This document shows, one piece after another, positions 10,268-30,781 of a DNA stretch of 64,000 nucleotides. Position numbers and translations under genes: made by a program. The notes under the pieces are model-generated. The model searched no databases, had not been told where the DNA came from, and saw only the letters and a program-made list of their open reading frames with translations. Each line of letters begins with the position of its first letter. The stretch's first letter is position 1. This DNA comes from Spirochaetia bacterium (GTDB taxonomy: Bacteria > Spirochaetota > Spirochaetia > UBA9216), in assembly GCA_963677925.2 (NCBI GenBank), contig CAXXYH010000003.1, positions 96,001-160,000 of the forward strand. The letters are read 5' to 3'.

Positions 10268-10409
10268 ATTTAACGACGTTTTGAGTTGCAAAATCGTTCG
10301 GTGTCCACGCCGAATTGGCGCGATTCTGGAGTGCAGCGCGATCAGCGCGGAACGTCTTTAGCCAGAATCGTGACAATAGATTTTGACTACTCCAAAACTT
10401 TTGTTAAAT
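10268..10409 (-). repeat. attC type A #9
   Basis: Family consensus. Confidence 0.92.
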
Positions 10410-10435
10410 GCTTATACCCAACTTACCCTGCACAT

Positions 10436-10496
10436 AAAATAAAAATGTGGCAAAGCCTGGAGCCCGAATGGGCGGAACATATAACCCCTGTTATAT
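10436..10496 (-). repeat. Half of type-B attC (R'' side)
   Basis: aaaataaaaatgtggc...ataacccctgtta matches right part of intact site 29740-29830. Confidence 0.8.
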
Positions 10497-11057
10497 AAAG
10501 TACTTGGGCCACCTAATTAAAAACCCTAAATACATGGATGTATTTAGGGCAGTATTGATTTTGGTTTTATATTTCAATATCTGTAATACGAATAAATAAA
10601 TTACTAATTCTATCAATAATTTTTCAAACACTTCATGATTATCAATTACTTCTATCATAGTCTTTAAACCAGTTTTGTTTTTATCTTTCATTCTTAAATA
10701 TTTGATATAACTTCCATGGTATTCAACTATCTCATAATATGAATGAACATATTTATTTCTATCTTCTTCAACTCTTTTTAATTCTTTCTTCAGTTCTGAA
10801 AATTCGTCAATCACAATACTTTTAACATTATTCTGATACATTATTGATTCAATAATATTTATGATTTTATAGAAACTAATCTCGGAGGCTATAATTCTTG
10901 CATATTCAACATTCCCCAATAATTGCCCCAACAATTCAACAAGTGCATGTTCCAATTCTTGAAAGGAAAAAATAATTAATCCTAATGTACTTGTCGGATC
11001 ATTCATGAATAAATTATTATTTGCATTTTCCATCCAATCGGGTATTTTTGAATCCAT
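10491..11057 (-). CDS. Cassette hypothetical protein with HEPN-like RxxxxH motif
   Basis: FQELEHAL...RNKYVH; C-terminal ~25 aa read through flanking motifs. Confidence 0.65.
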   Translation of the reverse strand: MDSKIPDWMENANNNLFMNDPTSTLGLIIFSFQELEHALVELLGQLLGNVEYARIIASEISFYKIINIIESIMYQNNVKSIVIDEFSELKKELKRVEEDRNKYVHSYYEIVEYHGSYIKYLRMKDKNKTGLKTMIEVIDNHEVFEKLLIELVIYLFVLQILKYKTKINTALNTSMYLGFLIRWPKYFI

Positions 11058-11091
11058 TTCATCCTCTATCTAAGATTTAAGTTTTAACTTG

Positions 11092-11445
11092 TCAAACAAA
11101 TTGAACTAATATTATCACACCTTCTGCCCATTCATATTTCTCAATTATGCGTTGAACTATTTTTGTAACAAACTCTATATAATTGTTTTTGGCACTATAA
11201 GATATTGGATTTTCTCCATTAGCAGTAGTCAATGTAACAATTAATTTATTAACTCCTTCTTCATTTAATAGGGCAACTCTAAAAGCTATTCTAGTTGCCC
11301 ATGCATCAGTTTCAATTTTTATATTTTTAAAAGCTTCATATTCTAACCATTCTTTTCTACTGATATCATATGGTAGAGTTAAATCATAAGAGAATAATGG
11401 TATAGTTAAAGCAAAAAGCATAATACTGAAGATTAATTTTTTCAT
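11092..11445 (-). CDS. Small exported protein
   Basis: MKKLIFSIMLFALTIPLFS signal peptide; AGGAG RBS. Confidence 0.8.
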   Translation of the reverse strand: MKKLIFSIMLFALTIPLFSYDLTLPYDISRKEWLEYEAFKNIKIETDAWATRIAFRVALLNEEGVNKLIVTLTTANGENPISYSAKNNYIEFVTKIVQRIIEKYEWAEGVIILVQFV

Positions 11446-11530
11446 TCTTACTCCTAACTTCTAATTCAATCTTTTATGTTCAACACGAGCCAGGACGGCG
11501 AGTGCCAAATCTCCGCTGCCCAAGTATTTT

Positions 11531-11567
11531 ATATAACGTCCCGGGGTTATATGACGTTTTTATTTTT
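11531..11567 (-). repeat. Half of type-B attC (R' side)
   Basis: taacgtcccggggttatatgacgtttttatttt matches left part of intact site 29740-29830. Confidence 0.8.
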
Positions 11568-11628
11568 CTTAATTTTACCACCACTTACCCGTATTTACCA
11601 ATCATAAACTATTGGCCCATGTCTGTGC

Positions 11629-11772
11629 ATTTAACGACGAAATAAGTTGCGCCCTCGATCCTGAGCCGCAGGCGAAGGAATTGGCGCGGTTTCTGAGTGA
11701 GGGCCATTGCCCGAACGTCTTTAGCAGAAACCGTGACAATAGACGGCGACAACTTCATTTCATTTGTTATGT
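11629..11772 (-). repeat. attC type A #10
   Basis: Family consensus. Confidence 0.92.
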
Positions 11773-11775
11773 GTT

Positions 11776-12792
11776 TCATTCCCTCATCTCAGGTGCAAAT
11801 CGATAAGAATATACTATTTCTTCTACTGAATTATTATAAAGTATTTCATTATCAACTAAATTATATAATTGTCTTAGTAATTTTTGATATTCTTCATTAT
11901 CATTTATCTGGCTCATTACAGTGTAATGTTCTAAAAAGAATGGTAAGAATGAAATAGTAGTAATTTCGTTTACTTCTTTATAAAATTCATTTGTATCAGT
12001 ATTATTATACAATCCTAAATACTTCTCAAAATTTTCATATTGAATTGTCAAATACTCTAATATTTCTATTTCTCCATTGATCAACTTATCCAAATTCATT
12101 TTACCACTGATAACCACATCTCTATCAATTCCTAAAAAATAATTTGAGAAAGAGGCTAAATAATTATCTTTATAATCTACACTTAAAAACCATTCAAATC
12201 TGGTAACCTTATATCCTTTTTCAATAAATGCATGATTAATATATCTGCTTTGAAAATAATATGAATCAAGAATATACAAATATTCTTCTAATTTGTTTGC
12301 AGAAATATATTCGAACCTTTTATTATTCATATAATCATATATAACTTTGAATTCTCGTACCACTGAAGATATTACTAATGTTAATAAGTCTTCTTTTTCA
12401 AGATAATATCTACTTAGATACAATGTTAAATTCTCATTTTCATCAGTTGATACGAGTGCGACATGGGTTATATCTTCATCTGTATTAGTCTTTATTTCAA
12501 ATACTCCATTTTCAATCATTTCTGCAATATCTTTAGCGATTGCCCCATAATCGATCATTTCATCTTCAATATTTTGCATATCATCTAAAATATGATCTAT
12601 CAATTCATATGTCCCAGGCCCTGCTTCTCGTGAATCTGTGTCAGGTAATAAATCATTTAAATCTGAATAATTAATATTCCATTCTTCTTCCATTCCGGAT
12701 ATATACCCAGTTCTTGCACTGAAATCAATTGTTTCAGCATAAATGATTACTGTACTGCAAAAAAATAGAAGTATTAGACTAATCTTTTTCAT
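11776..12792 (-). CDS. Exported acidic hypothetical protein
   Basis: Signal peptide MKKISLILLFFCSTVIIYA; GAGG RBS. Confidence 0.82.
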   Translation of the reverse strand: MKKISLILLFFCSTVIIYAETIDFSARTGYISGMEEEWNINYSDLNDLLPDTDSREAGPGTYELIDHILDDMQNIEDEMIDYGAIAKDIAEMIENGVFEIKTNTDEDITHVALVSTDENENLTLYLSRYYLEKEDLLTLVISSVVREFKVIYDYMNNKRFEYISANKLEEYLYILDSYYFQSRYINHAFIEKGYKVTRFEWFLSVDYKDNYLASFSNYFLGIDRDVVISGKMNLDKLINGEIEILEYLTIQYENFEKYLGLYNNTDTNEFYKEVNEITTISFLPFFLEHYTVMSQINDNEEYQKLLRQLYNLVDNEILYNNSVEEIVYSYRFAPEMRE

Positions 12793-12842
12793 TAAATTTC
12801 CTCTTTAAATTATTTTATCACTAAATCGTAAATCTTAAATAC

Positions 12843-12986
12843 ACATAACGACGAAATAAGTTGCGCCCTCGATCCTGAGCGTAGCGAAGGAATTGGCGTG
12901 ATTCTGGAGTGGAGCGCGATCAGCGCGGAACGTCTCCGCCAGAATCATGACAATAGACGGCGACAACTTCATTTCATTTGTTAAAT
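12843..12986 (-). repeat. attC type A #11
   Basis: Family consensus. Confidence 0.92.
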
Positions 12987-13147
12987 GCCGATAATATCGA
13001 CTCATTTCAGAAAAATAAAAATGAGCTGAAGGCCAAGCTCAATTATAACAATGCTTATATTCTCCAAGAATGTACAAGTTTCTGATTACTTTTAATAATA
13101 TCGCCAAAAGTACACGGATGTACTTTTGAAACTGTATTCTAATATAT

Positions 13148-13912
13148 TTACAAATCTTCTCCAGTTTTATTTTTATATGCAGCAAACAAATAGTTACATA
13201 TAGATTTTGTAGAATCAATTGTCAGTCTTGCATGATGTTCTTTAAGTTTATAATATTTCCCCTTAGATTTTCCATGTGAATCCGAATGTTGATTTCTTAT
13301 CTCACTAATTCCTTGTACTATTGAAAAAAATCCAGATAGAATTTTCTTAAAATATTCTTCTTTATAATCTATTGGATCTAAGTGAAGAAAATTAGAAACT
13401 TTCTTATACAGTTTTATTAGATCATCATTACTACTAATTTCTATAGACTGCTTTTCAAGTATTGTTTTTAATAATGTTTCAAGTAATGTTCGAGAATTTG
13501 TTACTGCACCGTCAAAATCTTTATCCATTAATTTACGATCAATTTTTTCTATCTGTTCTATAGCGTAATCAAAGCTAATTTTCTCTATATGGTTTTCAAT
13601 TTTGATATTATCTACAGGAATTTTCATTGTTGGATCTATAAAAGATTCAATCCAACAAAGATCAATAGAATTTTCTTCAACTGGATATAAAATATGGAAA
13701 GCATCCAAGATTATTTCATTATCATCATGAGAAAGTTCTTGTAACTTTTCATAAGTTACAATATCAGAGTATAATTTTAGTCCAGTACGATATGAATTAA
13801 AGGCTCGACCAAAGCTACTTGATTCAATAAACTCATATGAACATTTTTTAAGTAAAATTGCTAAATCATTCCTTTTTTTATAAATCAAATATTCTAAAAT
13901 TCTATCTTCCAT
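13148..13912 (-). CDS. Abortive infection (Abi_C) family protein
   Basis: DFDGAVTNSRTLLETLLKTIL...IRNQHSDSHG...HHARL. Confidence 0.8.
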   Translation of the reverse strand: MEDRILEYLIYKKRNDLAILLKKCSYEFIESSSFGRAFNSYRTGLKLYSDIVTYEKLQELSHDDNEIILDAFHILYPVEENSIDLCWIESFIDPTMKIPVDNIKIENHIEKISFDYAIEQIEKIDRKLMDKDFDGAVTNSRTLLETLLKTILEKQSIEISSNDDLIKLYKKVSNFLHLDPIDYKEEYFKKILSGFFSIVQGISEIRNQHSDSHGKSKGKYYKLKEHHARLTIDSTKSICNYLFAAYKNKTGEDL

Positions 13913-14054
13913 TCTTCCTCTTTATAGCGAGCCAAGGACGGCGAGCAAAAAACCAACTAAAATCAGAAATTGTACATAGATTATGTGACGTTTTATTTTT
14001 CTTATTGTATTCTATCACACTCATCATTTTCCCAAAACTGTTATTTTTTCGTGC

Positions 14055-14194
14055 ATTTAACGACAATTTGAGCTGCCTGGCGGCGCGAGTCTTCGAGCGC
14101 ATTGGCGTGATTCTGGAACGTAGCGCGATCAGCGCGAAGTGTCTCTGCCAGAATCATGACAATAGCCAGGACTGCTCCAAATTTTTTGTTAAAT
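14055..14194 (-). repeat. attC type A #12
   Basis: Family consensus; stop codon of 14189 ORF lies in R''. Confidence 0.92.
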
Positions 14195-15355
14195 GCCGTT
14201 TTCCATCAAGTCTAAAGTTTCATCTGCTTCTTCAATCCATCTATTTATTATCGCTTTATTCTCATTCTTTTTTTCTTGATTTTTTGTATAGGATTCATTC
14301 AAGTCTTTTTGATGTTTATAATATTCACCGAGTTTTGATATTAAATCGCGTCCTTTCTCATTAATTTTCTTATCTTTAATTATCTTGGTTAGTTCTCTTT
14401 CCATTTCTTCAACAGAATATCCTGTCGTTTTCTTAAAATCTCTTATTACCCATTGTTTTTCAAATATATTTCGTTTCAACCAGCCGTCATATTGTTCTTT
14501 ATATGTTCCATAGATCTTTTCTATTTTGTTTTCCAGTTCTTTATCTATTGCTCTTTTATTTTCTTCTTTTTCACTAATTTTTATTTTCTCATCAAGTAAT
14601 ACCTGTATTGAGCCTACTTCCTTTCCATTATATTTCTCCGGCACTAATAATGATAATGCAACCCCTAAACCTGCTTCTTCTTTGGTTAATTCATGACTTT
14701 TATTTATTTCATCAAATTCTTTTTGACTTATTCCCATATATCCTGCAATTTGTTCTGTTGATTCTTTTGTCGTCATAGTTTTTACATACCCCGGCCCAAC
14801 ACAATAAGTATTTATCTTTAATCTTTCTAATTCCATTGATAAAGTATTACATAATTCAATCTGTGCTGTTTTTAATATCTCATAACATCCCATATATGGG
14901 ACTGCACCTGATGACGGCATAAAAACTATAGTTCCACTATTCTTTTCTTTCATATATGGTAAAAATGCTTTTATTAGTAATACTGGACCCTTTAAATTTA
15001 CATTATAGCTTAAATCCCATTCTTCCGGTTCAATTTCTTCAAGTTTTCCAATCTTTACTATTGTTGCATTATTTATTATCACATCTATTCTTTTATATTT
15101 ATTAAAAATAAGTTTTTTAACTTTTTCAATTTCATTGATATCACCAATATCGCATTCTATTATCTTTAAATTTCCTAATTCCTTTTTCTCACGAGTGTAA
15201 TTTTCTATTTTATTCTTGTCATTTTCTAATATTACTACATTTGCTCCAAATTTTTCACAATTCCTCGCAATTTCCATGCCTATATCACCACAGCCTCCAG
15301 TAATTAAAATGACTTTTCCTTTTAACCTATCGTAGTCTTTAATTTCTTTTTCCAT
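14189..15355 (-). CDS. SDR family oxidoreductase with helical C-terminal extension
   Basis: ITGGCGDIG, INNA, YEILK (YxxxK), VGPGYVKT. Confidence 0.9.
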   Translation of the reverse strand: MEKEIKDYDRLKGKVILITGGCGDIGMEIARNCEKFGANVVILENDKNKIENYTREKKELGNLKIIECDIGDINEIEKVKKLIFNKYKRIDVIINNATIVKIGKLEEIEPEEWDLSYNVNLKGPVLLIKAFLPYMKEKNSGTIVFMPSSGAVPYMGCYEILKTAQIELCNTLSMELERLKINTYCVGPGYVKTMTTKESTEQIAGYMGISQKEFDEINKSHELTKEEAGLGVALSLLVPEKYNGKEVGSIQVLLDEKIKISEKEENKRAIDKELENKIEKIYGTYKEQYDGWLKRNIFEKQWVIRDFKKTTGYSVEEMERELTKIIKDKKINEKGRDLISKLGEYYKHQKDLNESYTKNQEKKNENKAIINRWIEEADETLDLMENGI

Positions 15356-15414
15356 ATTCTTCTCATCATAATTGTATTATTGATAATAACAAATGTATAT
15401 CATAAATTCCGTGC

Positions 15415-15547
15415 ATTTAACGACGAAATAAGTAGCGAAACTGTCCCGAGTCTTCGAGGGTTGGAGCGGTTCTGGAACGAGCGATCAGCGAGTGTCTCCG
15501 CCAGAACCGTGTCAAAAGTTTTGACTACTTCATTTCATTTGTTAAAT
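15415..15547 (-). repeat. attC type A #13
   Basis: Family consensus. Confidence 0.92.
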
Positions 15548-15587
15548 GCTTTTCTTTATCAGACCGCACGACGGAGTCAAGGTCTGA

Positions 15588-16469
15588 TTATATATTACTC
15601 TTAATAATGATTGTGGTACCAACTCCACCTTCTTTATAAATATTTCCTAAATTTTCTTTAAAATATTCTATTCCTACATCTCCAGTGCTATGCATAGGAT
15701 ATAAACATCTTAAAGGTATCTCCTGAAATTTCTTCTTTGTATATACCAATAATCTTTCATTTGCTTGATGTAATTGTAAGCCTCCAATAATAAAACTTAT
15801 ATTATTATCACTCTTTTTTATGATATGATTTATTGTATTCACTATTCCTGAATGACAACATCCACATATTACAATTTTACTATTATCTTCAAGTTCAATA
15901 ACTAATGAAATATCATCATCCAATTGATCCTGTTCTTCAATTCCATTCTCTCTTTTTATTACTTTTTTTAACATTGGATTTAAAATCTCATAATCATTTT
16001 TTCTTGGGATTTCTCCTGTTATCCAAATATTATCAGTTATTCTATATTCATCTTTTCTCTTAATTATTCTGCCACTTTGTTCAATTCTTTCTATTTCTTT
16101 AGTATCTTGTATCCCAACATTTTTTTCAGTACCATCTTCCAATATTAATATTTTTTCTATTAACGTATCAGGATGGCAAACAACTCTAACATAGTCATTT
16201 GAATTCGTAAAAGCATATGATAATCCACCGGTATGATCAAAATGTCCATGACTTAAAACTATATAATCAATATCGCTTATATCTAACTTTAATTTTTGTA
16301 GATTTATTTTCAATCTTTCATTTTCTGGGCCAGTATCAAATAGTATTTTTATAATAGTTCCATCATCTAATTCATTCTCAACTAATGCTGAAAATCCTCC
16401 AGGAGCATATTCGTCTCCAACAATTGATTTATTATCAACTATTACCGTGATTTTAACCTGTTTTACCAT
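15588..16469 (-). CDS. MBL-fold metallo-hydrolase
   Basis: LFDTG, SHGHFDHTGG, GCCHSG, PMHSTG. Confidence 0.9.
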   Translation of the reverse strand: MVKQVKITVIVDNKSIVGDEYAPGGFSALVENELDDGTIIKILFDTGPENERLKINLQKLKLDISDIDYIVLSHGHFDHTGGLSYAFTNSNDYVRVVCHPDTLIEKILILEDGTEKNVGIQDTKEIERIEQSGRIIKRKDEYRITDNIWITGEIPRKNDYEILNPMLKKVIKRENGIEEQDQLDDDISLVIELEDNSKIVICGCCHSGIVNTINHIIKKSDNNISFIIGGLQLHQANERLLVYTKKKFQEIPLRCLYPMHSTGDVGIEYFKENLGNIYKEGGVGTTIIIKSNI

Positions 16470-16619
16470 TTACAATATTTCCCTTATCTATTATCGAGAG
16501 TATAAACACTGATACAATCCTATAGCCCGTCGGCCGGAGGTCCGGGCTATTTCTTCATTCTTATACTAAACCCAATATACAAAATCGACTAACATTTTTA
16601 TGATTTATACTTTAAGTGC

Positions 16620-16756: not shown

Positions 16757-16783
16757 AGAGCAATTTTCTTCATTTCTCGAATT

Positions 16784-17847: not shown

Positions 17848-17853
17848 ACTTAT

Positions 17854-17882: not shown

Positions 17883-18032
17883 TTTTTATATTTCATAATA
17901 ATCCCAGCCCTAACGCTCGCTTCCACTGGGGTTCTCTCACCGTTTCGCTTCCGCTGGCAGCTGAATTTCGTTCCCATATGGGTTTAAACTACAACAATTA
18001 TTTCATCAAATTTACACTGCGTTATTGGTTCT

Positions 18033-18178
18033 TGATAACGACGAAATAAGTTGCGCCCTCGATCCTGAGCCGAAGGCGAAGGAATTGGCGTGATTCTGGA
18101 GTGGAGCGCGATCAGCGTGGAACGTCTCCGCCAGAATCATGACAATAGACGGCGACAACTTCATTTCATTTGTTATAC
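18033..18178 (-). repeat. attC type A #15
   Basis: Family consensus. Confidence 0.92.
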
Positions 18179-23152: not shown

Positions 23153-23294
23153 CCCTTCGTCATAATTTTTTAATAAGAGTTAATTACTCCCCACAATCGC
23201 CCGTCGGCCGGAGGTCCGGGCGATTTCTTATTCCTTATATTACCCCCTAAAACGATTATCAGCTAATATTTTTATTATTACATTCTCTAAGTGC

Positions 23295-23434
23295 ATTTAA
23301 CGACGTTTTGAGCTGCCTGGCGGCGCGAGTCTTCGCGCGCATTGGCGTGATTCTGGAGTGCAGCGCGATCAGCGCGGAACGTCTATGCCAGAATCATGAC
23401 AATAGCCAGGACTGCTCCAAAACTTTTGTTAAAT
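23295..23434 (-). repeat. attC type A #19
   Basis: Family consensus. Confidence 0.92.
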
Positions 23435-23459
23435 GCTATACCCAAACAACCCAATCCAT

Positions 23460-23520
23460 AAAATAAAAATGTGGCGCAGCCCGAAGCCCGAATGGGCTGA
23501 GCATATAGCCCCTGTTATAG
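23460..23520 (-). repeat. Half of type-B attC (R'' side)
   Basis: aaaataaaaatgtggcgcagccc...atagcccctgtta. Confidence 0.8.
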
Positions 23521-23619
23521 GAAGTATTTTGGCTCTTGAGTCAGACCGTACATCGGAGATAGGGCTGGCCTCTTAAACATACAACTTTCAACTTTAACAG
23601 TATCCTAAAACAAACTTTG

Positions 23620-24747
23620 TCAATTAAAAGCATACTTCACTAAAGCTATTTCATTCTCACTATCACTACCTTTTTCAAATAAAAATAAGTTATCTCCAGT
23701 TTGAAGTTTTCTTACAACTTCGATGTCTTTCAAATCCTCATCAATAGTCCCAATCCATCTTGGACTATTTAACTCTCTTATATCATAAACAAAATAATTC
23801 CCGATTAAAATATTATTAAAATCAAAATCTAAATCAAAATAACTAAACAAGTTTATTTCATCTGTTGAATTACATTTTTGTAGAAATTCATATTTTTTTT
23901 CACTATCTAATTTTATTATGCTCCAAAAATACTCTTCTGAATTTAAACCTCTTGCTCCATCACTTACTATAATATCATTATATATATTAAATCCATTGTC
24001 CTCTAAACTGATAGAATTTATATCGACCAATTCATAATTATTAGAAATATTAGTAATATCATAAACAATCATTTGATTTGTTATTGTAAAAGGATTACCA
24101 TCTTTATCAACTTTAAGCTCACTTGAAAAAGTGTATAAATAATTTGAATTTAAGTAAATTTCTTTATCAATTACTCCTTCGAAAGAATCTAAATAATGTC
24201 TTTCAATTTCTAGCATATTATCAGCATCCAAAATTAATAATAGTTTATAGTATGAAAATGAATTAGAATCTAAAATATAAATTTTATTATCCATACATCT
24301 TAAACTTAAATAATAGGTAGTGTTTAAATTATAGGTATTATTTTCACTAATAGAATATTTAAAAGATGGATTTGTTATATCCTCAATCAAATATACCAGA
24401 CAATCCGTTGACCCTAGAAGATACAAATAATTTTCATAAATATACAATTGTTTAAAATCAGGAACAATATCATTATAATAATTTGAATTATCAACCCAAG
24501 GGATGGTGGAAACTTCAATCAATCCTTCCAAATCTATCAAGTGCACCATCCCATCAGTACTATAATATACTAAAACTTTAGAAGTCTCAGATATAAACGC
24601 AGAGAATGAATCTGCTTTTTCATCTAAAATAAGTTTTGTATCTTTAGAAAATATTTGATTGAAATGGTATCCATTTTGATAATATGGAAAAAAGTTTTTA
24701 CATGAGGTTATTCCTAATAATAATAAAAATAATAAAATCCTTTTCAA
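23620..24747 (-). CDS. Lipoprotein, possible beta-propeller
   Basis: MKRILLFLLLLGITSC lipobox; repeated (V)YDI..P motifs. Confidence 0.8.
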   Translation of the reverse strand: MKRILLFLLLLGITSCKNFFPYYQNGYHFNQIFSKDTKLILDEKADSFSAFISETSKVLVYYSTDGMVHLIDLEGLIEVSTIPWVDNSNYYNDIVPDFKQLYIYENYLYLLGSTDCLVYLIEDITNPSFKYSISENNTYNLNTTYYLSLRCMDNKIYILDSNSFSYYKLLLILDADNMLEIERHYLDSFEGVIDKEIYLNSNYLYTFSSELKVDKDGNPFTITNQMIVYDITNISNNYELVDINSISLEDNGFNIYNDIIVSDGARGLNSEEYFWSIIKLDSEKKYEFLQKCNSTDEINLFSYFDLDFDFNNILIGNYFVYDIRELNSPRWIGTIDEDLKDIEVVRKLQTGDNLFLFEKGSDSENEIALVKYAFN

Positions 24748-24860
24748 TACGTTTCATTCCTTATATATTGACATAATATATCAATTTTAAATTTTATTCT
24801 TTTTTTCTTATTGCCCGTCGGCCGGAGGTCCGGGCGTCTTTCTCTTAGCCAAAATATTTC

Positions 24861-24898
24861 CTATAACGTCCCGGGGTTATATGACGTTTTTATTTTTT
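24861..24898 (-). repeat. Half of type-B attC (R' side)
   Basis: taacgtcccggggttatatgacgtttttatttt. Confidence 0.8.
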
Positions 24899-24954
24899 AA
24901 TTTTACCACCAATTACCCGTATTTACCATTTCAAACTGTTTTACCATGTTGTGC

Positions 24955-25092
24955 ATTTAACGACGATTTGAGTAGCAAAATCGGCCGAGTCTTCGAGGCT
25001 TGGCGCAGTTCTGGAACGTAGCGCGATCAGCGCGGAGTGTCTCTGCCAGAACTGTGACAAAGATTTTGACTACTCCAAATCTTTTGTTATAT
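24955..25092 (-). repeat. attC type A #20
   Basis: Family consensus. Confidence 0.92.
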
Positions 25093-25106
25093 GGGATTTC
25101 CATTAT

Positions 25107-25601
25107 TTATGGATAAAAATTATGTTCTGGGTCTACAAATACGACATAAAAAGTATTCTTATCAAATGCTTTTCCAGTTTTACAATGGATTTTCCCATTA
25201 TATTCATCTGGAACTACAAAACCAATAAGCCTTTTATCATATTCTAAACGGAATCTACCCCATAGTACTTGATGTGGAATATATGAAGGATGTTTTAATT
25301 TTGAATGCTTTGGAAATGCACCATAATTTACATAAATACTGTTTCGGTGCTTCCCACTTCCAATTTTCATATTTTCCCAATGCTCTAAATTTTCTCTACT
25401 ATACTCAATTAATTTCTTAAATATTTTATTACTATCATCCTTCTGCATATTCTTTATATCTTCACATAAAGACTGAGAGCTATCAAAATAGCTGAAATTA
25501 AATTTCATTCTATTGGATAGAGTATCGGTTTCAGAATCAAGACTAGCTTGTGGAAAAGAATTAATAAACGAATCTTTTTTACTATTCTGAAAATTTTTCA
25601 T
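25107..25601 (-). CDS. MAG6450-like protein (possible RelE-fold toxin)
   Basis: KFNFSYFD...WGRFRL...RLIGF...TFYVVFVDPEHNFYP. Confidence 0.6.
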   Translation of the reverse strand: MKNFQNSKKDSFINSFPQASLDSETDTLSNRMKFNFSYFDSSQSLCEDIKNMQKDDSNKIFKKLIEYSRENLEHWENMKIGSGKHRNSIYVNYGAFPKHSKLKHPSYIPHQVLWGRFRLEYDKRLIGFVVPDEYNGKIHCKTGKAFDKNTFYVVFVDPEHNFYP

Positions 25602-26734
25602 ATTTTAGGGACTCCCCCTAATTTACCACTAAAATAAATATTTGAAATTTGTCGATCATTCCTTACAATATCGCCAGGTAGCTCATCTAATCTATAAGCA
25701 AAACTACAATTTTTTTCTTTATTTACCAGAATTGTTTTGTATTTCCCAAGTTCGTCCATTATTTTATTATTATGTGTTGTAAAAATTAATTGAGCATCCT
25801 TTTGATTTGCTTCTTCATCAAATAACTTAATTAGTTTTGGTAAAATTAATGGATGGAGATTTATATCAAATTCATCCAGAACTAAAACTCCTCCCACATC
25901 CAAAATTGCTTTATATAAAAATAAAGTTGAATACAATGCTTTAGTTCCACTTGATTCATAATGTATTGTTAATGCTTCGACTCTATCCTCTAAATCATGA
26001 TAAAAAATAGGAAAATAACTTTTATCACCATTATCTAAATCGCGATCGAATATTTTTATATCATTAATTCCTACATCACATTTTTTTATTTGTTCAATTG
26101 CAAAAGTAAAAGCTTTTTCATTTTGTAAATATAATTCTGAGATCTTACTAATATCAGGGTTGAATCCATGATAACCAAAATTATTTACATTAGTTACAAT
26201 GTTTTTAAAAAATGAATACACATTATTGATTGATTTGAAATCATATTGATGTGCAGTACTTATAAACGAGGCATTATTTCTTAACTTCATCATTTTGATT
26301 TCATCATAATCTTTATTCGTGTATATAATTTCATTATATTTTCTTTCTACTATTTTAGTATTTCTTTTAATTTTCTTATATAAGACTTCTGAAATAACGT
26401 TTTGTTGTGTTGTCTCTAGCTCGTATCTATACTCGATATCATCAATCTTGAAAACAATATAAAAATCGGTTGGGTCCTTACTTTCAAAAAATGATTCTAA
26501 CATTATTTCATCGTCAGGTTTCATTCGAAATGAATCAATACAAAAATTCCTTATGAAATCTATAGTTTTTAATATATTTGTTTTTCCACTTGCGTTTCCA
26601 CCTTTTACACATATTACATTTGTAAATTCCTTTCCATGAGATATGCTTTCTGGACAATTATTATTCAAACGCAATGAAGCTTCAAAACCTTCTTTAAAAG
26701 AAAAGTAATTCCTAGCACCAAATTCTAATAACAT
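25598..26734 (-). CDS. AAA_21 (RloA/AbiEii-like ABC-type) ATPase
   Basis: NYFSFK, GGNASGKTN, ESSGT, LVLDEFD..LHP, LIFTTHN, G.LGGVP. Confidence 0.9.
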   Translation of the reverse strand: MLLEFGARNYFSFKEGFEASLRLNNNCPESISHGKEFTNVICVKGGNASGKTNILKTIDFIRNFCIDSFRMKPDDEIMLESFFESKDPTDFYIVFKIDDIEYRYELETTQQNVISEVLYKKIKRNTKIVERKYNEIIYTNKDYDEIKMMKLRNNASFISTAHQYDFKSINNVYSFFKNIVTNVNNFGYHGFNPDISKISELYLQNEKAFTFAIEQIKKCDVGINDIKIFDRDLDNGDKSYFPIFYHDLEDRVEALTIHYESSGTKALYSTLFLYKAILDVGGVLVLDEFDINLHPLILPKLIKLFDEEANQKDAQLIFTTHNNKIMDELGKYKTILVNKEKNCSFAYRLDELPGDIVRNDRQISNIYFSGKLGGVPKI

Positions 26735-26850
26735 ATCGATCTCCTATAGGATTCTACTAATAATATCGTCTAAATCCTTAAAAAGTCAACTCTTATTAGC
26801 TTTTTTTGTCATTTTTGACTAATTATGCCTGTTATAATCCAATATTCTCC

Positions 26851-26991
26851 ATATAACGACGATTTGAGTAGCGAAACCGTGCCGAGTCTTCGAGGCTTGG
26901 CGCGATTCTGGAGTGGAGGCACGATCAGTGCCGCAACGTCCCTGCCAGAACCGTGACAATGGTTTTGACTACTCCAAAACTTTTGTTATAC
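26851..26991 (-). repeat. attC type A #21
   Basis: Family consensus. Confidence 0.92.
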
Positions 26992-27001
26992 ATTTTTTAT
27001 T

Positions 27002-27856
27002 TCAATCATGTTTTTCTATTTCTTTTTGTTCTTTTGAATAAATAGTTTTAGCCATTCCTTTAACCATAGTTTCAGAAATAAAAATAATTTGTCCTTTTTT
27101 ATTTTTATAATAATCAGAGGATAATCTTTTATAATAACCTCTACGAAAGTGAGGGGACACAACTTTACCAGAAGAAGAGTTATTGACAGGTTCTACTATT
27201 TTATCGGCAATTTCTAATATGAAAGATTTTTCCTTTATTTCCTCCTTAATATAAGGAGGAACTCCTTCCTTAACACATTCAGGAAATGCTTCCATATATG
27301 CAATAGTGTTAATTGCAAGTCGAAAGATTCGGCAAATTTCATTGGAATTTCGTGAATCTTCCTTTAATAATTCTTTATAATTTTTCTCTGAGCACCAGGC
27401 ACCTCCTTTGCCTATAGCCCAATATAGAATAATTTGATTCTGTTCATTATTCATTAATCCAAATGCATAACCCTTATACTTATTTTCATATGGAATATGT
27501 AATCCAAATGGAAAAATACGTAATTTTAAATTACCTTGTTCTTCAATCATTCCATTCTCATTAATATATTTTCCAATACCTTCGAGATCTGCTAATTGAA
27601 TATTTTCAAGAAAATTTCTTAAGTTTTTATCAATGAAGTATAGGTGTAACATTTTATTAATAGCATCTGTATACCATAAATCCCACGTAAACTTTTTTAA
27701 TTGCTGCTTTTGCCAAGATTGAAAAGGATTATTCATTATTTGTTGATTAATGCGTATTAAAAACTGTTCAATTGTATCTTTATTATTTTTGTAATTTTCT
27801 AAGTAGTTATCCCATTGAGTCGCTAAAGGTTTACTATACCAAGGTTTCTTTCCCAT
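27002..27856 (-). CDS. Hypothetical protein with C-terminal PHxRRG motif
   Basis: VSPHFRRGYYKR...IFISETMVKG. Confidence 0.78.
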   Translation of the reverse strand: MGKKPWYSKPLATQWDNYLENYKNNKDTIEQFLIRINQQIMNNPFQSWQKQQLKKFTWDLWYTDAINKMLHLYFIDKNLRNFLENIQLADLEGIGKYINENGMIEEQGNLKLRIFPFGLHIPYENKYKGYAFGLMNNEQNQIILYWAIGKGGAWCSEKNYKELLKEDSRNSNEICRIFRLAINTIAYMEAFPECVKEGVPPYIKEEIKEKSFILEIADKIVEPVNNSSSGKVVSPHFRRGYYKRLSSDYYKNKKGQIIFISETMVKGMAKTIYSKEQKEIEKHD

Positions 27857-27859
27857 ATT

Positions 27860-28258
27860 CTAAAATAGTGGCATTATAAATTGTTCATCTTTATTAAAAG
27901 ACCACTGAACTTGCCACGTTGAACCTGTAATTTGATCTAAAAGGATAAAATTCCACATATTACTAGTATAATATAGTGTAAATCTTCCATCTATCTTTTT
28001 TTTATTTTCTGCCAGATTCTTATCATTTAAAATTACTCCACCTCTTTCATTATCTTCTACAGAATATTGTAAAATCCACATTTTTCCCGTAGCAGTCTCT
28101 AGTTCAATAAATGTCCAAATATTTTGTGTTTTAAAGAGTCGATAAGGAGCATTAGGATCTTGAGTTGATTCTATAACCTGAGTTTGTGCTATTAATCCTG
28201 TAGATATAATAAAAAAGACAACTAAAAATATCATAACTTTCTTCATAATATCCTCCAA
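27860..28258 (-). CDS. Small exported protein with duplicated motif
   Basis: Signal peptide; YRLFKTQNIWTFIELET.TG / FTLYYTSNMWNFILLDQ.TG repeat. Confidence 0.8.
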   Translation of the reverse strand: MEDIMKKVMIFLVVFFIISTGLIAQTQVIESTQDPNAPYRLFKTQNIWTFIELETATGKMWILQYSVEDNERGGVILNDKNLAENKKKIDGRFTLYYTSNMWNFILLDQITGSTWQVQWSFNKDEQFIMPLF

Positions 28259-28283
28259 AACTATTTAACCCTTCTTAGAATAT

Positions 28284-28419
28284 GTATAACGACGATTTGA
28301 GTAGCAAAATTGATCCGCGTCTTCGCGGAATTGGCGCGATTCTGGAGTGAGCGATCAGCGAACGTCTTTAGCCAGAATCGTGACAATAAATTTTGACTAC
28401 TCCAAATCTCTTGTTAAAT
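28284..28419 (-). repeat. attC type A #22
   Basis: Family consensus. Confidence 0.92.
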
Positions 28420-28445
28420 GCTTTTGCCCAACTTACCCAATTCAT

Positions 28446-28508
28446 AAAATAAAAATGTGGCGTAGCCCAAGGAGCGCTTAGCGACGAAGCAAATAACCCC
28501 TGTTATAC
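28446..28508 (-). repeat. Half of type-B attC (R'' side)
   Basis: aaaataaaaatgtggcgtagccc...ataacccctgtta. Confidence 0.8.
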
Positions 28509-28603
28509 GCTTTGAGCTTGACATACAGACCGTTCAACGGAGTTAGGTCTGGATTCTTTATCTAATATAGTAAAATTTTTATCGGAATAATTAATATTAT
28601 ACT

Positions 28604-29638
28604 CTAATCAACCCAAGCAGGTACTTCAGGAGCAAAATCTATTTTATTAGTTACTAACCGATATGCTAATGCCTCTCCTTCATGTTTTATATCAATAGAT
28701 GTTATTTCACATTTGAAAATATGTTGATATTTCTCAGTTAGAACTTCATACGCTTGTTGATTCAGGAGAGTATTAGAAGCTTCTGTATTTGACATTCGAC
28801 AAGCATATACTACAGGGACTCCAACAACAGTGTACTCATTATTTATGATATTCAACGAAACCTCTCCATAATCAATCCCAATGCCTAATCCTATATTATT
28901 TAAAATAACGTTAAAACATGATTTTGATTGATCATAAACTTTATTAAATTCTTCATGACATTCAATTGAACTTTTTAAAGCATAAAACAGAGCATCTTTT
29001 CCTGAATAAAAATCAGGAAAAAATGCAAGAATCCCATCGCCAGTAAATTTATCAAATATACCATAATTTTTTTGTATTATTTTAATTATTCCTTTTATTA
29101 GCTCATTTATAAATTCAGAGAATTTATCTGGGGTTCTTGACTTTAACATTAATTCTGTAGATCTTCTAATATCCAATGAAAACACAACAGCATTTGATTT
29201 TCTCACTTCCTCAAATTGCTTTCTAAATTTTTCATCATTTAGTAATTTGGTTTGAGCTGCTTCATTAATCCTATGATAAATGTATCTTAATTTATATTTA
29301 TTCTGAAGTTCTTCGAATTTATCCTTTAGCACTTTTGTTTCATCTCTTGGATTTTTATTAAAAGTACCAAGTTTTTTTGCCATATCTGCTATTTCATCAA
29401 AAGTGCTAAAATAGTTTTCAAATTTTATGGATTTTAATGTTTCGTCTAATTGATCCAACACATCAAAAGCTATTGATTTAATATTTCTATCAGAAAAATC
29501 TTTTAGAGCCTCAGCTAATTCTTTTATTTTTTCTTCTTCTAAATAACTTTTTGTTAAAATAGCATCTACTTTTGAAATATTATTTTTAGATTCTCTTAAT
29601 GCTTTTCCTGACTCTTCTTTTGCATCATCAAAATTCAA
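28604..29638 (-). CDS. Class III nucleotidyl (adenylate/guanylate) cyclase domain protein
   Basis: FSLDIRRST, DKFTGDGILAFF, GIGIDYGEV, YTVVG.PV..ACR. Confidence 0.88.
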   Translation of the reverse strand: MNFDDAKEESGKALRESKNNISKVDAILTKSYLEEEKIKELAEALKDFSDRNIKSIAFDVLDQLDETLKSIKFENYFSTFDEIADMAKKLGTFNKNPRDETKVLKDKFEELQNKYKLRYIYHRINEAAQTKLLNDEKFRKQFEEVRKSNAVVFSLDIRRSTELMLKSRTPDKFSEFINELIKGIIKIIQKNYGIFDKFTGDGILAFFPDFYSGKDALFYALKSSIECHEEFNKVYDQSKSCFNVILNNIGLGIGIDYGEVSLNIINNEYTVVGVPVVYACRMSNTEASNTLLNQQAYEVLTEKYQHIFKCEITSIDIKHEGEALAYRLVTNKIDFAPEVPAWVD

Positions 29639-29739
29639 TATTACACCTCCAACTTTTTTATATCTAAAAATAAAAACTAAATATTAACTCGCCCGTCGGC
29701 CGGAGGTCCGGGCGTCTTATTCTTGTCAAGCTCATTGCG

Positions 29740-29830
29740 TAATAACGTTCCGGGGTTATGTGACGTACGGCGAAGCCGTATGTGGCGCAGCCCGAGGAGC
29801 GTAGTGACGAGCGAATAACCCTTGTTAGAC
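29740..29830 (-). repeat. Intact attC type B
   Basis: taacgttccggggttat...ataacccttgtta inverted repeat with tacggcgaagccgta arm. Confidence 0.85.
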
Positions 29831-29879
29831 GATGTCACGAACCTTCTTCAAAGCCAAGCAACATGGATGTTGTTTGGCT

Positions 29880-30209
29880 TTAATCTATTAACATTTCCTG
29901 TAGCACATTCTTGACGAGATCTACTTCTTTTCTATTTATTTTACCAATCTTTTTAATTAATCTCTTCCTATCAACAGTTCTTAATTGATCTAAAACAATC
30001 CATCCATCTTTATTTTGAAACTTAACAGCTACACGAGTAGGATATGTATGTGATTTTGTTGTCATTGGAGCGATAATAATAGTCTGGATTGTTTCATTCA
30101 TTTCATTTGGTGAAATCACTAAACAAGGTCTTGTCTTTTTTATTTCATGGCCAACTGTTGGATCTAAGTTTATTAAATATACCTCATATTGATGAATTAC
30201 CATTCCCAT
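29880..30209 (-). CDS. mazF: MazF/PemK family toxin
   Basis: LDPTVGHEIKKTRPCLVIS...DQLRTVDRKRL. Confidence 0.92.
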   Translation of the reverse strand: MGMVIHQYEVYLINLDPTVGHEIKKTRPCLVISPNEMNETIQTIIIAPMTTKSHTYPTRVAVKFQNKDGWIVLDQLRTVDRKRLIKKIGKINRKEVDLVKNVLQEMLID

Positions 30210-30445
30210 TCAAAATCACCCTGTTCAGTCAAATTGTCTAAAAGTAATGAATCATCCCCATTTTGATGCATCTTCATAAACTCTTCGGACCATCCTTCCC
30301 TTGGCTTTTTCTTTATTGGTCTAATCAGTATTTCTGTATTATGCACTTCTAATTCAACTTTTTCTTCAATATTTAACTGTTGCAAAATGCTCTTCGGAAT
30401 TCGTATTCCTTTTGAATTGCCTATAGGAACCACTGAAACTAACAT
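30197..30445 (-). CDS. mazE: MazE/AbrB family antitoxin (start corrected to 30445)
   Basis: IGNSKGIRIPK; GAGGTG RBS before ATG at 30445. Confidence 0.9.
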   Translation of the reverse strand: MLVSVVPIGNSKGIRIPKSILQQLNIEEKVELEVHNTEILIRPIKKKPREGWSEEFMKMHQNGDDSLLLDNLTEQGDFEWEW

Positions 30446-30464
30446 AATACACCTCTTTATTGTA

Positions 30465-30493
30465 ATTATATAGTAATTACATAAATTTGTCAA
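30465..30493 (-). promoter_or_regulatory. Consensus sigma70 promoter and operator of mazEF
   Basis: TTGACA-17 nt-TATAAT; tgtaatta...taattaca palindrome. Confidence 0.85.
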
Positions 30494-30546
30494 TCTTTGC
30501 TTGCCAAGGATGGCAAGCATCCTCTTTCTCTTAGGTTCGTGATTTC

Positions 30547-30583
30547 GTCTAACGCCCCGGGGTTATATGACGTTTTTATTTTT
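30547..30583 (-). repeat. Half of type-B attC (R' side)
   Basis: taacgccccggggttatatgacgtttttatttt. Confidence 0.8.
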
Positions 30584-30642
30584 CTCAATTTTACCACCAA
30601 TTACCCGTATTTACCATTTCAAACTGTTTTACCATGTTGTGC

Positions 30643-30781
30643 ATTTAACGACGATTTGAGTAGCGAAACCGGCCGAGTCTTCGAGGCTTGGCGTAGTTCT
30701 GGAACGTAGCGCGATCAGCGCGGAGTGTCTTTAGCCAGAACTATGACAAAGGTTTTGACTACTCCAAATCTCTTGTTATCT
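30643..30781 (-). repeat. attC type A #23 (attC of first cassette)
   Basis: Family consensus; same sequence as #17. Confidence 0.92.

Follow-up and report, generated by a model that had tools for sequence, protein, structure and literature searches.

What are the two halves of one recombination site doing at opposite ends of cassettes that are bounded by sites of another kind? The question is raised by a 64,000-nt stretch of DNA from a Spirochaetia bacterium (henceforth the window), in which an array of integron cassettes bounded by one attC family (type A) includes units whose ends carry the right and left halves of a second hairpin site (type B). The original prediction was that circularisation of such a unit would rebuild the type-B site around a complete type-A attC, and that this compound site could be an adaptor between cassette families or a trace of how new attC sites are installed.

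Split type-B sites in the window

Reading of the sequence placed all of the half-sites, the intact type-B site, and the flanking type-A attC sites at the positions that had been claimed for them, and nhmmer found every unit in the window to be bounded by type-A sites (table 1). The B-left core GGGGTTATATGACG occurs exactly at 11543, 24873, and 30559 and with one mismatch at 29752, in the intact site; with up to three mismatches it has 14 matches against 2.93 expected, a number reached in none of 100 shuffles. The B-right junction AAAATAAAAATGTGGC is exact at 10436, 23460, and 28446 and has three mismatches at 13012; its loose count of six is not above chance (reached in 15 of 100 shuffles), and its signal lies in the three exact 16-mers. 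On the contig of the window (C3, where window positions 10262–10413 are C3:106262–106413), an nhmmer profile built from four plain B sites matched only half-sites, the intact site (110 bits), and one extra unit beyond the window (C3:53455–53511 and 54117–54153). This profile misses unit U3 (13011–13057 and 13981–14000), which had been described as decayed; its halves are indeed present, and by eye they are diverged from, but recognisable as, the linker and L-box variant that prevails in another genus.

Table 1. Recombination sites, half-sites, linkers, and genes of the split units in the window
Feature	Position	Strand	Evidence
Type-A attC, left boundary of U2	10262–10413	+	nhmmer, 140.6 bits
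U2 linker R, between A R' box and A-run	10404–10435	+	sequence
U2 B right half: A-run, arm 2, L', R' (GTT at 10490)	10436–10496	+	sequence, B profile, flank pairing
U2 cargo: ORFs 10491–11057 and 11092–11445	10491–11445	-	weak HEPN-like Pfam match below cut-off
U2 B left half: R'', L'', T-run	11531–11567	+	R'' flank cognate to R' at 10490, 21/26
U2 linker L	11568–11627	+	extended -10-like TGGTAAAAT on coding (minus) strand
Type-A attC, right boundary of U2	11622–11776	+	nhmmer, 112.4 bits
Type-A attC, left boundary of diverged U3	12836–12990	+	nhmmer, 139.0 bits
U3 B right half, diverged; type-2 L' (GCTTATATTCTCC) as in genus g4	13011–13057	+	sequence
U3 cargo: Abi_C/HEPN-like protein	13148–13912	-	Pfam PF14355, E = 3.1e-20
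U3 diverged B left half, T-run, type-2 linker L	13981–14053	+	linker matches G007 type
Type-A attC, right boundary of U3	14048–14199	+	nhmmer, 147.6 bits
Type-A attC, left boundary of U4	23288–23439	+	nhmmer, 150.7 bits
U4 B right half	23460–23520	+	sequence, B profile
U4 cargo, 375 aa, no Pfam match	23620–24747	-	same cassette as C4:1147787–1149386
U4 B left half (24861–24898) and linker L	24861–24943	+	cognate R'/R'', 22/26
Type-A attC, right boundary of U4	24948–25096	+	nhmmer, 148.9 bits
Type-A attC, left boundary of U5	28280–28424	+	nhmmer, 123.6 bits
U5 B right half	28446–28508	+	sequence, B profile
U5 first B cassette cargo, 344 aa, no Pfam match	28604–29638	-	R' cognate to intact-site R'', 22/26
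Intact plain type-B site parting the two B cassettes of U5	29740–29830	+	nhmmer, 110.4 bits; fold
U5 second B cassette cargo: mazE 30197–30520, mazF 29880–30209	29880–30520	-	Pfam
U5 B left half (30547–30583) and linker L	30547–30639	+	R'' cognate to intact-site R', 19/26
Type-A attC, right boundary of U5; attC of integrase-proximal cassette	30636–30783	+	nhmmer, 144.6 bits
IntI integron integrase, 419 aa, of the type-A array; divergent from cassettes	32199–33458	+	TIGR02249, 382.5 bits

Across each cargo, about 20 nt past a B R' box are complementary to the sequence preceding the next B R'' box. Cognate R'/R'' pairs in the window agree at 21, 22, 22, and 19 of 26 positions and non-cognate pairs at 4–17, and the unit at 28446–30583 therefore contains two complete B cassettes.

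Two cassette arrays in one genome

The genome holds two separate gene-cassette platforms with different recombination sites, one on C3 and the other on a second contig, C4. The C3 platform, the array seen in the window, is an integron of the classical kind, comprising IntI and about 39 type-A attC sites, and the C4 platform consists of about 19 type-B hairpin sites (19 by nhmmer) co-oriented with a gene for an Xer-like tyrosine recombinase. Genome wide, nhmmer returned 43 type-A matches: 39 on a single strand of the C3 array (C3:51614–126783), and four nested within compound sites on C4. All nine B-profile matches on C3 fall within A-bounded units, and with both profiles no plain B site was found as a top-level boundary among the 39 A-bounded cassettes adjoining IntI. 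As expected of an integron, the attC sites of the C3 array have RYYYAAC/GTTRRRY cores and bound co-oriented cassettes beside intI; its ORFs lie on the strand opposite the type-A sites, intI is divergent, and R'' and R' of a cassette match each other (e.g., CACATAAC/GTTATGTG).

The segregation of A and B sites is incomplete, in that the B array of genome G006 contains one top-level type-A site and an A remnant.

Compound sites and their folds

A type-B site is a three-way junction in which arm 2 and a variable arm 1 branch from an R/L stem, with xTAAC ... GTTAx cores and an L stem of 11 bp. It has the inverse R''/R' cores and L''/L' boxes that form the boundary hairpin of an attC site. The extrahelical L-box bases that mark the recombining strand of attC sites are absent from its bulge-free L stems, and its asymmetry takes the form of an internal loop of 5 nt versus 1 nt between the R and L stems. 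Sites of one B subfamily have, in place of arm 1, a module made up of a T-run, linker L, an entire type-A attC, linker R, and an A-run. Such a compound site equips its cassette with two recombination sites. Four contiguous compound sites are present on C4 (C4:1142518–1142854, 1143759–1144090, 1145035–1145373, and 1149153–1149485).

On C4 the flanks of R' and of the next R'' are also complementary across cargos, with a cognate mean of 16.9 of 24 (n = 17) versus 10.7 (sd 2.2, n = 307) for non-cognate pairs; of the pairs that start at the compound sites, three score 20, 21, and 19 and one scores 6, owing to a 1-nt indel. To judge from their sequence, then, the compound sites are boundaries of B cassettes.

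We searched 401 genomes of the class for the exact compound junction pattern and found it in three, with four copies in the genome under study (G000), all in its second array, one in a genome of the same genus (G001), and two in a genome of another genus (G007); the reversed pattern, used as a control on the same 401 genomes, had no matches. The contiguous attC-in-attC arrangement foreseen for the excised circle thus exists. Split units with identical junctions occur in the A arrays of G007 and G008. Every unit begins and ends at the same core positions in three genomes. The GTTAAATGC/GCATTTAAC cores at the break correspond simply to the R boxes of the type-A consensus, where A sites cross over.

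The contiguous compound site from C4 folds into a nested structure (dG -53.9, z -4.5, with 0 of 100 shuffles as good), and so do, once circularised in silico, the single-cassette units U2 (dG -71.9, z -8.8) and U4 (dG -81.0, z -9.3), whose minimum-energy folds comprise a 20-bp R stem, an L stem, a T/A stem, and the nested A site. The tttttatttt and aaaataaaaa arms pair, as had been proposed, in the contiguous site and in both of these circles. The bottom (non-coding) strand folds better than the coding strand (-71.9 vs. -62.9 for U2 and -81.0 vs. -70.3 for U4). The expectation that joined unit ends would restore the site held for these two units and failed for U5 and U1, whose circles would not rebuild a good outer B stem. 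Between genera the B L stem shows compensatory change (GGGGTTATATG/CATATAACCCC vs. GGGAATATAAG/CTTATATTCCC), and RNAalifold analysis of the seven compound sites gave a nested consensus with 82 pairs, of which 25 show double changes, three of these within the B L stem. The T/A-run stem does not vary and hence has no covariation support.

Two other kinds of element were considered for the insert of about 250 nt and rejected. A group II intron in an attC site finds no match, as no Rfam family reached the gathering score over the linkers and A sites of the window and the ORF lists call no ORF within the insert. A MITE or other transposable insert would account for the inverted repeats formed by the T-run and A-run, but there is no duplication, and copies occur only in B arm 1 or in units of the A array.

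A proposed route from the B array to the A array

We consider it likely that compound sites make dual-format cassettes, such that B cassettes are excised at nested A sites and taken up by the A array, where split B halves are left behind. IntI would recombine two nested A sites within a B array, and the excised circle would consist of the A site, linker R, the B right half, one or more B cassettes, the B left half, and linker L. On insertion of this circle at the attI of the integron or at a type-A site, the product would be a unit like those of the window, with B halves at its ends that pair only when it is circular again. IntI would act on A and the Xer-like enzyme on B, and return traffic may be possible because the circle carries a rebuilt B site. 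Linker L would give the cargo an outward promoter, a putative element recognised as a consensus match alone (10/12 in two copies and 7–9/12 in the others). IntI might act on B sites too, and an adaptor would then be unnecessary.

A different account is that the module is a selfish or promoter-bearing insert that colonised the variable arm of B sites by some insertion route or by gene conversion from one B site to another. The split would then be a by-product of IntI action on the hitch-hiking A site, and selection for an adaptor role would not come into it. Other long inserts are indeed tolerated in arm 1: the predicted long-armed sites without A were found, with a 105-nt arm once in G000 and four times in G001 and with a separate arm type of 75 nt in G006. 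An invader could also explain why the module is near-identical across at least eight unrelated cargos and why both linker L variants retain an extended -10-like motif aimed at the next cassette. The module, however, substitutes exactly for the short arm, with neither a short-arm remnant nor a target duplication; no copy of the module or of a linker, U2-type linker R included, lies outside compound or unit contexts in the 5.04 Mb of the genome; and compound sites have an L-box subtype of their own (ATATG/CATAT vs. ATGTG/CACAT in plain B sites), which suggests one whole-site lineage rather than repeated insertion. We therefore think this account unlikely, and it does not dispute the origin of the split forms proposed above. 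The exact replacement and the separate L-box subtype also speak against the compound site as a trace of attC installation.

A second recombinase beside the B array

IntI exceeds the TIGR02249 cut-off of 265 with 382.5 bits and carries the IntI-specific insertion near patch III, which is spanned by a single continuous alignment to IntI4 (2a3v). The C4 recombinase scores 194.2 with the same model, under the cut-off, and its best family is the XerA-like NF040815 (232.5; cut-off 220); it is closest to XerA (4a8e) and lacks the IntI insertion, where its alignment has gaps of 31 aa and 8 aa. The integron integrase is probably not the enzyme of type B, which would belong to a separate array beside this different recombinase.

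If instead the B array were just a group of attC sites without an integrase of its own (CALIN), served by the same IntI, the Xer-like gene would be unrelated to it and compound sites would be neutral fusion products. B sites resemble attC sites in their AAC/GTT cores, L boxes, and cassette-specific R pairing, and integron integrases accept diverse attC sites. Yet plain B sites are missing from the top-level boundaries next to IntI, and orthologues of the C4 recombinase adjoin B arrays in the same orientation in all five genomes examined, from two genera. In G000 and G007 a box like the B L box followed by GTTATAC stands directly after the stop codon of the recombinase gene, and in an Ignavibacteriota MAG and a Desulfitobacterium genome relatives of the recombinase are followed by sites built with the same asymmetry (xTAAC, 1 nt, stem ... 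stem, 5–6 nt, GTTAx). We regard a CALIN of this kind as quite unlikely.

The I2 insertion is thought to be necessary for single-stranded hairpin recombination. We tentatively suggest, without leaning toward it, that type-B arrays are a second integron-like platform run by an Xer/XerA-like recombinase without I2, and that the compound site, as a natural bi-specific adaptor, would couple it to a classical integron. On that reading, cassettes, many of them for defence or toxin-antitoxin functions, would flow between two mechanistically different recombination systems. A breadth scan found 573 relatives of the recombinase, of which 80 loci were kept, and a crude repeat scan detected arrays of at least three repeats downstream of the recombinase gene in 13 of the 80, including loci from Desulfitobacterium, the Ignavibacteriota MAG, and Algibacter; the second platform may be widespread well beyond this family.

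Cassettes common to both arrays

Two cassettes occur on both contigs. Window positions 23291–24890 match C4:1149386–1147787 with 98.4% identity over 1,601 bp, in a block that spans A, linker R, the B right half, the cargo, and the next B left half, so that the left type-A attC of U4 is shared with the nested A of a C4 compound site; the identity begins in the A R'' core, where IntI crossover is expected. In C4 the compound site of this 375-aa cassette is contiguous, and in the window it is split. The MazEF cassette at 29742–30573 matches C4:1152880–1152049 with 99.76% identity over 832 bp, beginning in the B R'' core. Such near-identical cassettes in both arrays, together with the same junctions in relatives, favour the adaptor reading of the original prediction.

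Homologous recombination by RecA at the 150-nt type-A repeats could likewise have moved segments of the B array into the A array with a similar-looking end product, as nested and array type-A sites are 75–99% identical over about 140 nt, enough for occasional exchange, but this is highly improbable given that the U4 block shared by C3 and C4 starts within the 11-nt R'' core, with 98% identity in the A body and no homology left of the core, that the MazEF block likewise begins in a core, and that the core positions at unit starts and ends are constant in three genomes.

For transfer by IntI, the present C4 array cannot itself have been the donor of U4 or U5, because the linker-L side of its 375-aa cassette has a long-armed B site without A and its MazEF cassette lies between two plain B sites; a donor array arranged differently from present C4 must be assumed. 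Linker L of U4 is also unlike linker L of the C4 compound site. U1 (C3:53385–54352) combines a g1-type B right half with a g4-type B left half and linker, and its L boxes are unpaired. Mixed halves of this kind are what A x A excision involving two distinct compound sites should produce, and are not expected of a single B circle.

Relation to known systems

We found no published description of attC-in-attC compound sites that link two arrays. Integron attC x attC exchange offers the closest set of likenesses: folded imperfect palindromes with AAC/GTT cores bound the cassettes, crossover is in the R box, R''/R' flanks are matched per cassette, circles would be the intermediate, and the window array has a true IntI. 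Recruitment of chromosomal-integron cassettes by the integrase of another integron differs in that here exchange would pass through a site of one family nested in another, the moved unit carries whole foreign cassettes and split foreign half-sites, and the two arrays adjoin different recombinases. The terminal structures of attC sites vary from 3-nt loops to branched forms, with extra DNA in the distal part of the hairpin and R/L stems intact as seen here, but in our case the variable arm contains a complete site of a second family that is itself a cassette boundary elsewhere in the genome.

The pdif modules of Acinetobacter plasmids are likewise gene modules flanked by Xer-type recombinase sites, which in their case are short, double-stranded, dif-like, and served by host XerCD, whereas the sites described here are hairpins of 85–340 nt arrayed beside a dedicated recombinase. 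Group IIC-attC introns and IS1111-attC elements are foreign DNA within attC-like sites from which an outward promoter is possible; for the introns, one is reported (PMC3001079). Unlike them, the insert of about 250 nt has no called ORF, Rfam family, or transposase, and sits in the distal arm rather than the R/L region. Gene-less, promoter-bearing cassettes are described from Vibrio chromosomal integrons; they too are short non-coding members of an array and may drive promoterless cassettes downstream. Here the non-coding module belongs to a recombination site, not to a cassette of its own, and its promoter is putative.

The same sites and cassettes are present within a single genome in contiguous, split, and plain form, which makes the proposed route and the tie to a second recombinase testable by standard recombination assays. 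The B array, linked as it is to a recombinase that lacks the integron-specific insertion, bears on the real nature of many integrase-less attC clusters and on the evolution of hairpin single-strand recombination from Xer-type enzymes. On the current view, integron cassettes switch platforms only when one integrase accepts the attC of the other platform. With a nested site, a cassette seems to have two plugs, which would be a simple natural way for differently sited arrays to share cargo.

The Window Array and Its Split Type-B Halves

The window region is a cassette array with its ORFs on the minus strand. The core of the B left half, GGGGTTATATGACG, is present there in exact copies at 11543, 24873, and 30559 and with one mismatch at 29752, in the intact B site; its loose matches number 14 versus 2.9 expected, and none of 100 shuffles contained as many. 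The junction AAAATAAAAATGTGGC occurs in exact copies at 10436, 23460, and 28446 and in a diverged form at 13012. Because its loose matches are no more numerous than expected by chance, it is the exact copies that carry weight. All coordinates that the original prediction assigned to the B halves and to the intact B site hold when the sequence is read out. Scanned with Rfam at gathering thresholds, the window yielded no matches.

We searched the whole genome (four contigs, 5.04 Mb, in which the window occupies C3:96001-160000) using a type-A profile built from seven type-A sites of the window (the attC family of the integron array on contig C3) and a B profile built from four plain type-B sites (the family of the array on contig C4). 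The type-A profile identified 43 copies, 39 of which form one array on a single strand at C3:51614-126783 and four of which are on C4. On C3 the B profile gave nine matches, every one within units bounded by type-A sites; these are the intact site and four pairs of half-matches, one pair coming from a unit outside the window (U1), and the diverged unit at 13011-14000 (U3) is not detected by this profile. Also outside the window, a 23-kb stretch of the type-A array (C3:60513-83472) is devoid of type-A sites and may be an inserted element; a weak tyrosine-recombinase match is found within it (C3:62251-62784).

Coordinates of features in the window, on contigs C3 and C4 of the same genome (G000), and at recombinase loci (L001, on C4; L024, G001 of the same genus; L026, G007 of genus g4; L029, G006; L031; L045, Desulfitobacterium)
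Feature	Location	Remark
Tyrosine recombinase gene	window 32199-33458	419 aa, plus strand
Unit U1	C3:53385-54352	
Units with split B halves	window 10436-11567 (U2), 13011-14000 (U3), 23460-24898 (U4), 28446-30583 (U5)	U3 diverged
C4 recombinase	C4:1138043-1139116 (L001:43-1116)	357 aa, co-oriented with its cassettes
Orthologues of the C4 recombinase	L024:19080-19988, L026:1201-2265, L029:1843-2919, L031:16295-17359	
GGGTTATATG element	L001:1146-1185; L026:2272-2300	
Compound sites, module replacing arm 1	C4:1142518-1142854, 1143759-1144090, 1145035-1145373, 1149153-1149485	
B sites with 105-nt arm	C4:1147633-1147822; L024:3195-3387, 9628-9815, 15797-15986, 17950-18144	
B sites with 75-nt arm 1	L029:4906-4970, 7668-7828	G006; closed by CTGA/TCAG
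Top-level type-A elements	L029:10986-11108; L029:4664-4717	G006; stand-alone site; remnant
Abi_C/HEPN cargo	window 13148-13912	
MazEF cargo	window 29880-30520	
Shedu SduA_C-like protein	L001:1188-2735	first C4 cassette
GmrSD + HNH	L026:3953-5515	early G007 cassette
GC-rich hairpin	window 23200-23223, 24815-24838, 29690-29713, 30497-30515; L045 e.g. 11230-11250	

Compound Sites in the Type-B Array

On C4 the B profile matches 19 sites, two of them weakly, at C4:1140786-1160264. Each B site is composed, in order, of R'' (xTAAC), 5 nt, an 11-nt L'', arm 1 (a short hairpin), arm 2 (a second hairpin), L', 1 nt, and R' (GTTAx), where R''/R' and L''/L' are the paired boxes of one site, and arm 1 covaries among the plain B sites (TACGGC/GCCGTA, TTCGGT/GCCGAA, and TTGGCC/GGCCAA). 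In compound sites arm 1 is replaced by a module consisting of TTTTTATTTTT, a linker of ~57 nt (linker L), a complete type-A site, a linker of ~24 nt (linker R), and AAAATAAAAA. The nested type-A sites on C4, at 109–150 bits, rank with the genome's best-scoring ones, and the compound site folds with the type-A site within a T/A stem within the B stem (ΔG −53.9 kcal/mol, z −4.5; opposite strand −48.7 kcal/mol, z −2.8). Both contiguous sites of this kind and long-armed B sites without a type-A site had been predicted from the window, and the C4 array contains four of the former and one of the latter. The 105-nt arm 1 of the long-armed site is conserved and closed by TTTTGT/ACAAAA, with one copy in this genome and four in G001.

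The B sites, including the compound ones, are real cassette boundaries. The ~20 nt that follow each R' are complementary to those that precede the following R'' on the far side of the cargo, and these cognate pairs have a mean score of 16.9/24 on C4 (n = 17) versus 10.7 (sd 2.2, n = 307) for noncognate pairs (Mann–Whitney p = 4e-7, the pairs not being independent). Four C4 cognate pairs score low, three of which have a 1-nt indel, and the remaining one probably spans a missed site. By gapped alignment, cognate pairs in the window score 21, 22, 22, and 19 of 26 versus 4–17 for noncognate pairs, and this complementarity indicates that U5 holds two full B cassettes divided by the intact B site.

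Cassettes Shared between the Two Arrays

Cassettes have recently been shared between the two arrays. Window 23291-24890 corresponds to C4:1149386-1147787 with 98.4% identity over 1,601 bp, in a block that begins inside the R'' core of the type-A site; the cassette's own site in C4 is a contiguous compound site, and in the window one end of its unit carries the identical type-A site together with linker R and the B right half. Window 29742-30573, which comprises the intact B site and mazEF, corresponds to C4:1152880-1152049 with 99.76% identity over 832 bp, and this block begins in the B R'' core. On C4 the far side of the 375-aa cassette is bounded by the long-armed B site without a type-A site, and the mazEF cassette is flanked by two plain B sites; linker L of U4 is unlike that of the C4 compound site. 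In view of these present flanks and the differing linker, the donor must have been a B array with another arrangement.

For each unit in the window, the ends were joined in silico at the type-A crossover and the product was folded with DNA parameters and compared with 60 dinucleotide shuffles. It had been proposed that the split halves rebuild a B site on joining; this is borne out by U2 (−71.9 kcal/mol, z −8.8) and U4 (−81.0 kcal/mol, z −9.3), which fold into the nested form that was predicted, with an R stem of 20 bp, and does not fully extend to U5 (−57.0 kcal/mol, z −6.4), the fold of which is partly different. Because U5 holds two cassettes, its outer R flanks are noncognate. The diverged U3 gave −52.9 kcal/mol (z −4.6). 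In all four units folding is better for the noncoding plus strand, which corresponds to the integron bottom strand, than for the minus strand.

In U1 the left type-A site (C3:53385-53425) is internally deleted, with R'' joined almost directly to L'-R', and the unit is therefore probably no longer excisable at that end. U1 combines a B right half of local type with a B left half and linker like those of genus g4, and the L boxes of the two halves cannot pair; this composition fits an A × A excision between two different compound sites. Relatives of its cargo are located between plain B sites in the B array of a same-genus genome with 87–90% identity.

The cargo is rich in defense and addiction genes. 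Many cassettes of both arrays have a conserved GC-rich hairpin between the recombination site and the start codon, which reads GCCCGTCGGCCGGAGGTCCGGGC on the plus strand and has a coding-strand loop of ..CCTCC.. or GTCCWTGG; in the Desulfitobacterium array a similar hairpin (GCC GTCCATGG C) is followed by an RBS.

Recombinases Associated with the Two Arrays

Judged by its sequence, the window enzyme is a true integron integrase: it scores 382.5 bits against TIGR02249 (cutoff 265) and aligns continuously to IntI4 (2a3v) across the insertion. It has an N-terminal extension of ~100 aa (32199-32525), the match to the integron-integrase model beginning at residue 110. The C4 recombinase has a TIGR02249 score of 194, which is under the integron cutoff, has gaps of 31 aa and 8 aa exactly at the IntI insertion, and has archaeal XerA as its closest structures; its N-terminal domain of ~80 aa has a weak HARP-like Pfam match. 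Orthologues share 52–96% identity, and in all five genomes examined (G000, G001, G004, G006, and G007) the recombinase gene is co-oriented beside the B array in the same arrangement. Directly 3' of the stop codon in G000 and G007, which represent two genera, is GGGTTATATG followed by 3–4 nt and G(A/T)TATAC, and the first cassette begins just past this element. The element looks like the L and R boxes of a B site in double-stranded form and may be a candidate attI-like site.

Scanning one genome per species for the recombinase gave 591 candidate stretches, of which 573 proved to be relatives; 80 loci were retained. The closest relatives that carry a name come from Spirochaetales or Spirochaetota MAGs, and by these names the host of the window is probably a spirochaete. 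Further relatives come from Bacillota, Bacteroidota, Nitrospirota, Ignavibacteriota, and archaeal MAGs. B-profile matches follow the recombinase gene in three Spirochaetota loci. A crude self-BLAST showed at least three repeats on the downstream side of 13 of these 80 loci and on the upstream side of four; most contigs stop less than 3 kb from the recombinase gene. In this analysis the Desulfitobacterium locus L045 has 12 downstream repeat positions, and sites read from that locus share the asymmetric B-site architecture (ATAAC, 1 nt, stem ... stem, 5–6 nt, GTTAT), as do at least ten sites in the Ignavibacteriota locus L120. A hairpin-architecture scan of 22 loci, which was too noisy in AT-rich DNA, gave a clear downstream excess on the strand of the gene only in the arrays of the family itself (L001, L026, L029, and L031) and in L120; of these five loci only L120 was then read, and counts from other loci were not used. 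Type-B-like arrays beside recombinase relatives in other phyla are a lead and not a census.

A literature search of full texts returned neither nested or compound attC sites nor arrays tied to insertion-less recombinases. According to Cury et al. (2016; PMC4889954), recombinases that lie near attC but have no IntI domain were co-localized with fewer than three sites and are not IntI, and integrons were lacking in Firmicutes. Smyshlyaev et al. (2021; PMC8138268) describe the insertion as incompletely conserved in their integron-like subgroup, and Ghaly et al. (2022; bioRxiv 10.1101/2022.02.06.479319) describe integrase-less clusters as more widespread than complete integrons.

Compound Sites in Related Genomes

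Querying related genomes with the DNA of one compound site gave matches in 11 of 41, mostly owing to the type-A part, with near-full-length matches in G001 (92%) and G007 (74%). The exact pattern of a T-run, 205–235 nt, and an A-run was found in three of the 401 genomes of the class (four copies in G000, one in G001, and two in G007, one of which has a degenerate B left half), the relatives being few and mutually related; the reversed pattern, used as a control, was found in none of the 401. Split units with the same junctions are present in the type-A arrays of G007 and G008, in line with the earlier claim that the break falls at a constant place, and none were found in G001 using exact patterns. 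The L boxes are GGGAATATAAG/CTTATATTCCC in the G007 compound site versus GGGGTTATATG/CATATAACCCC here. RNAalifold analysis of the seven contiguous sites recovered the nesting in a fold of 82 pairs; double changes affect 25 of them, including three in the B L stem, and the 13 pairs of the T/A stem are invariant. G006 breaks the clean segregation of the two families by having a top-level type-A site and a type-A remnant in its B array, and its long arm 1 belongs to a third type.

Proposed Movement of Cassettes through Compound Sites

Type-A sites are nested within type-B sites, the resulting compound sites are used as B boundaries, and in type-A arrays they are split exactly at the A R box. We considered three other explanations, namely, that the module hitch-hikes, that homologous recombination took place at the type-A repeats, and that IntI serves an attC cluster lacking its own integrase; all three leave the nested anatomy undisputed. 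Insertion of a gene-less type-A cassette into arm 1 by IntI is ruled out by the order of the elements, as it would give the linker-L side, the linker-R side, and then attC, which is the order of the type-A array and not that of the compound site. An assembly artefact is ruled out by the same junctions in four assemblies. Four runs of assembled contigs were aligned to window 22900-31000, and the resulting joints go back to the paralogous compound sites on C4 and to the repeated type-A and type-B sites.

That compound sites are a trace of how attC sites are installed, as had also been suggested, is a reading to which nothing in the data points. How one compound site came to be shared by unrelated cargos belongs to the general problem of cassette genesis. 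Linker L has, on the coding strand, a promoter-like TTGAGA, 18 nt, and TAAAAT with TG (10/12 in two C4 copies); the extended −10-like motif is present in both linker L variants, and the −35 is weak in the other copies. This element would drive the cargo that follows.

In the mechanism that we propose, IntI would recombine two nested type-A sites in the B array, and the circle would insert into the integron. The T/A stem would clamp the two B halves across the 250-nt insert, and because the circle would carry a rebuilt B site, return traffic would be possible.
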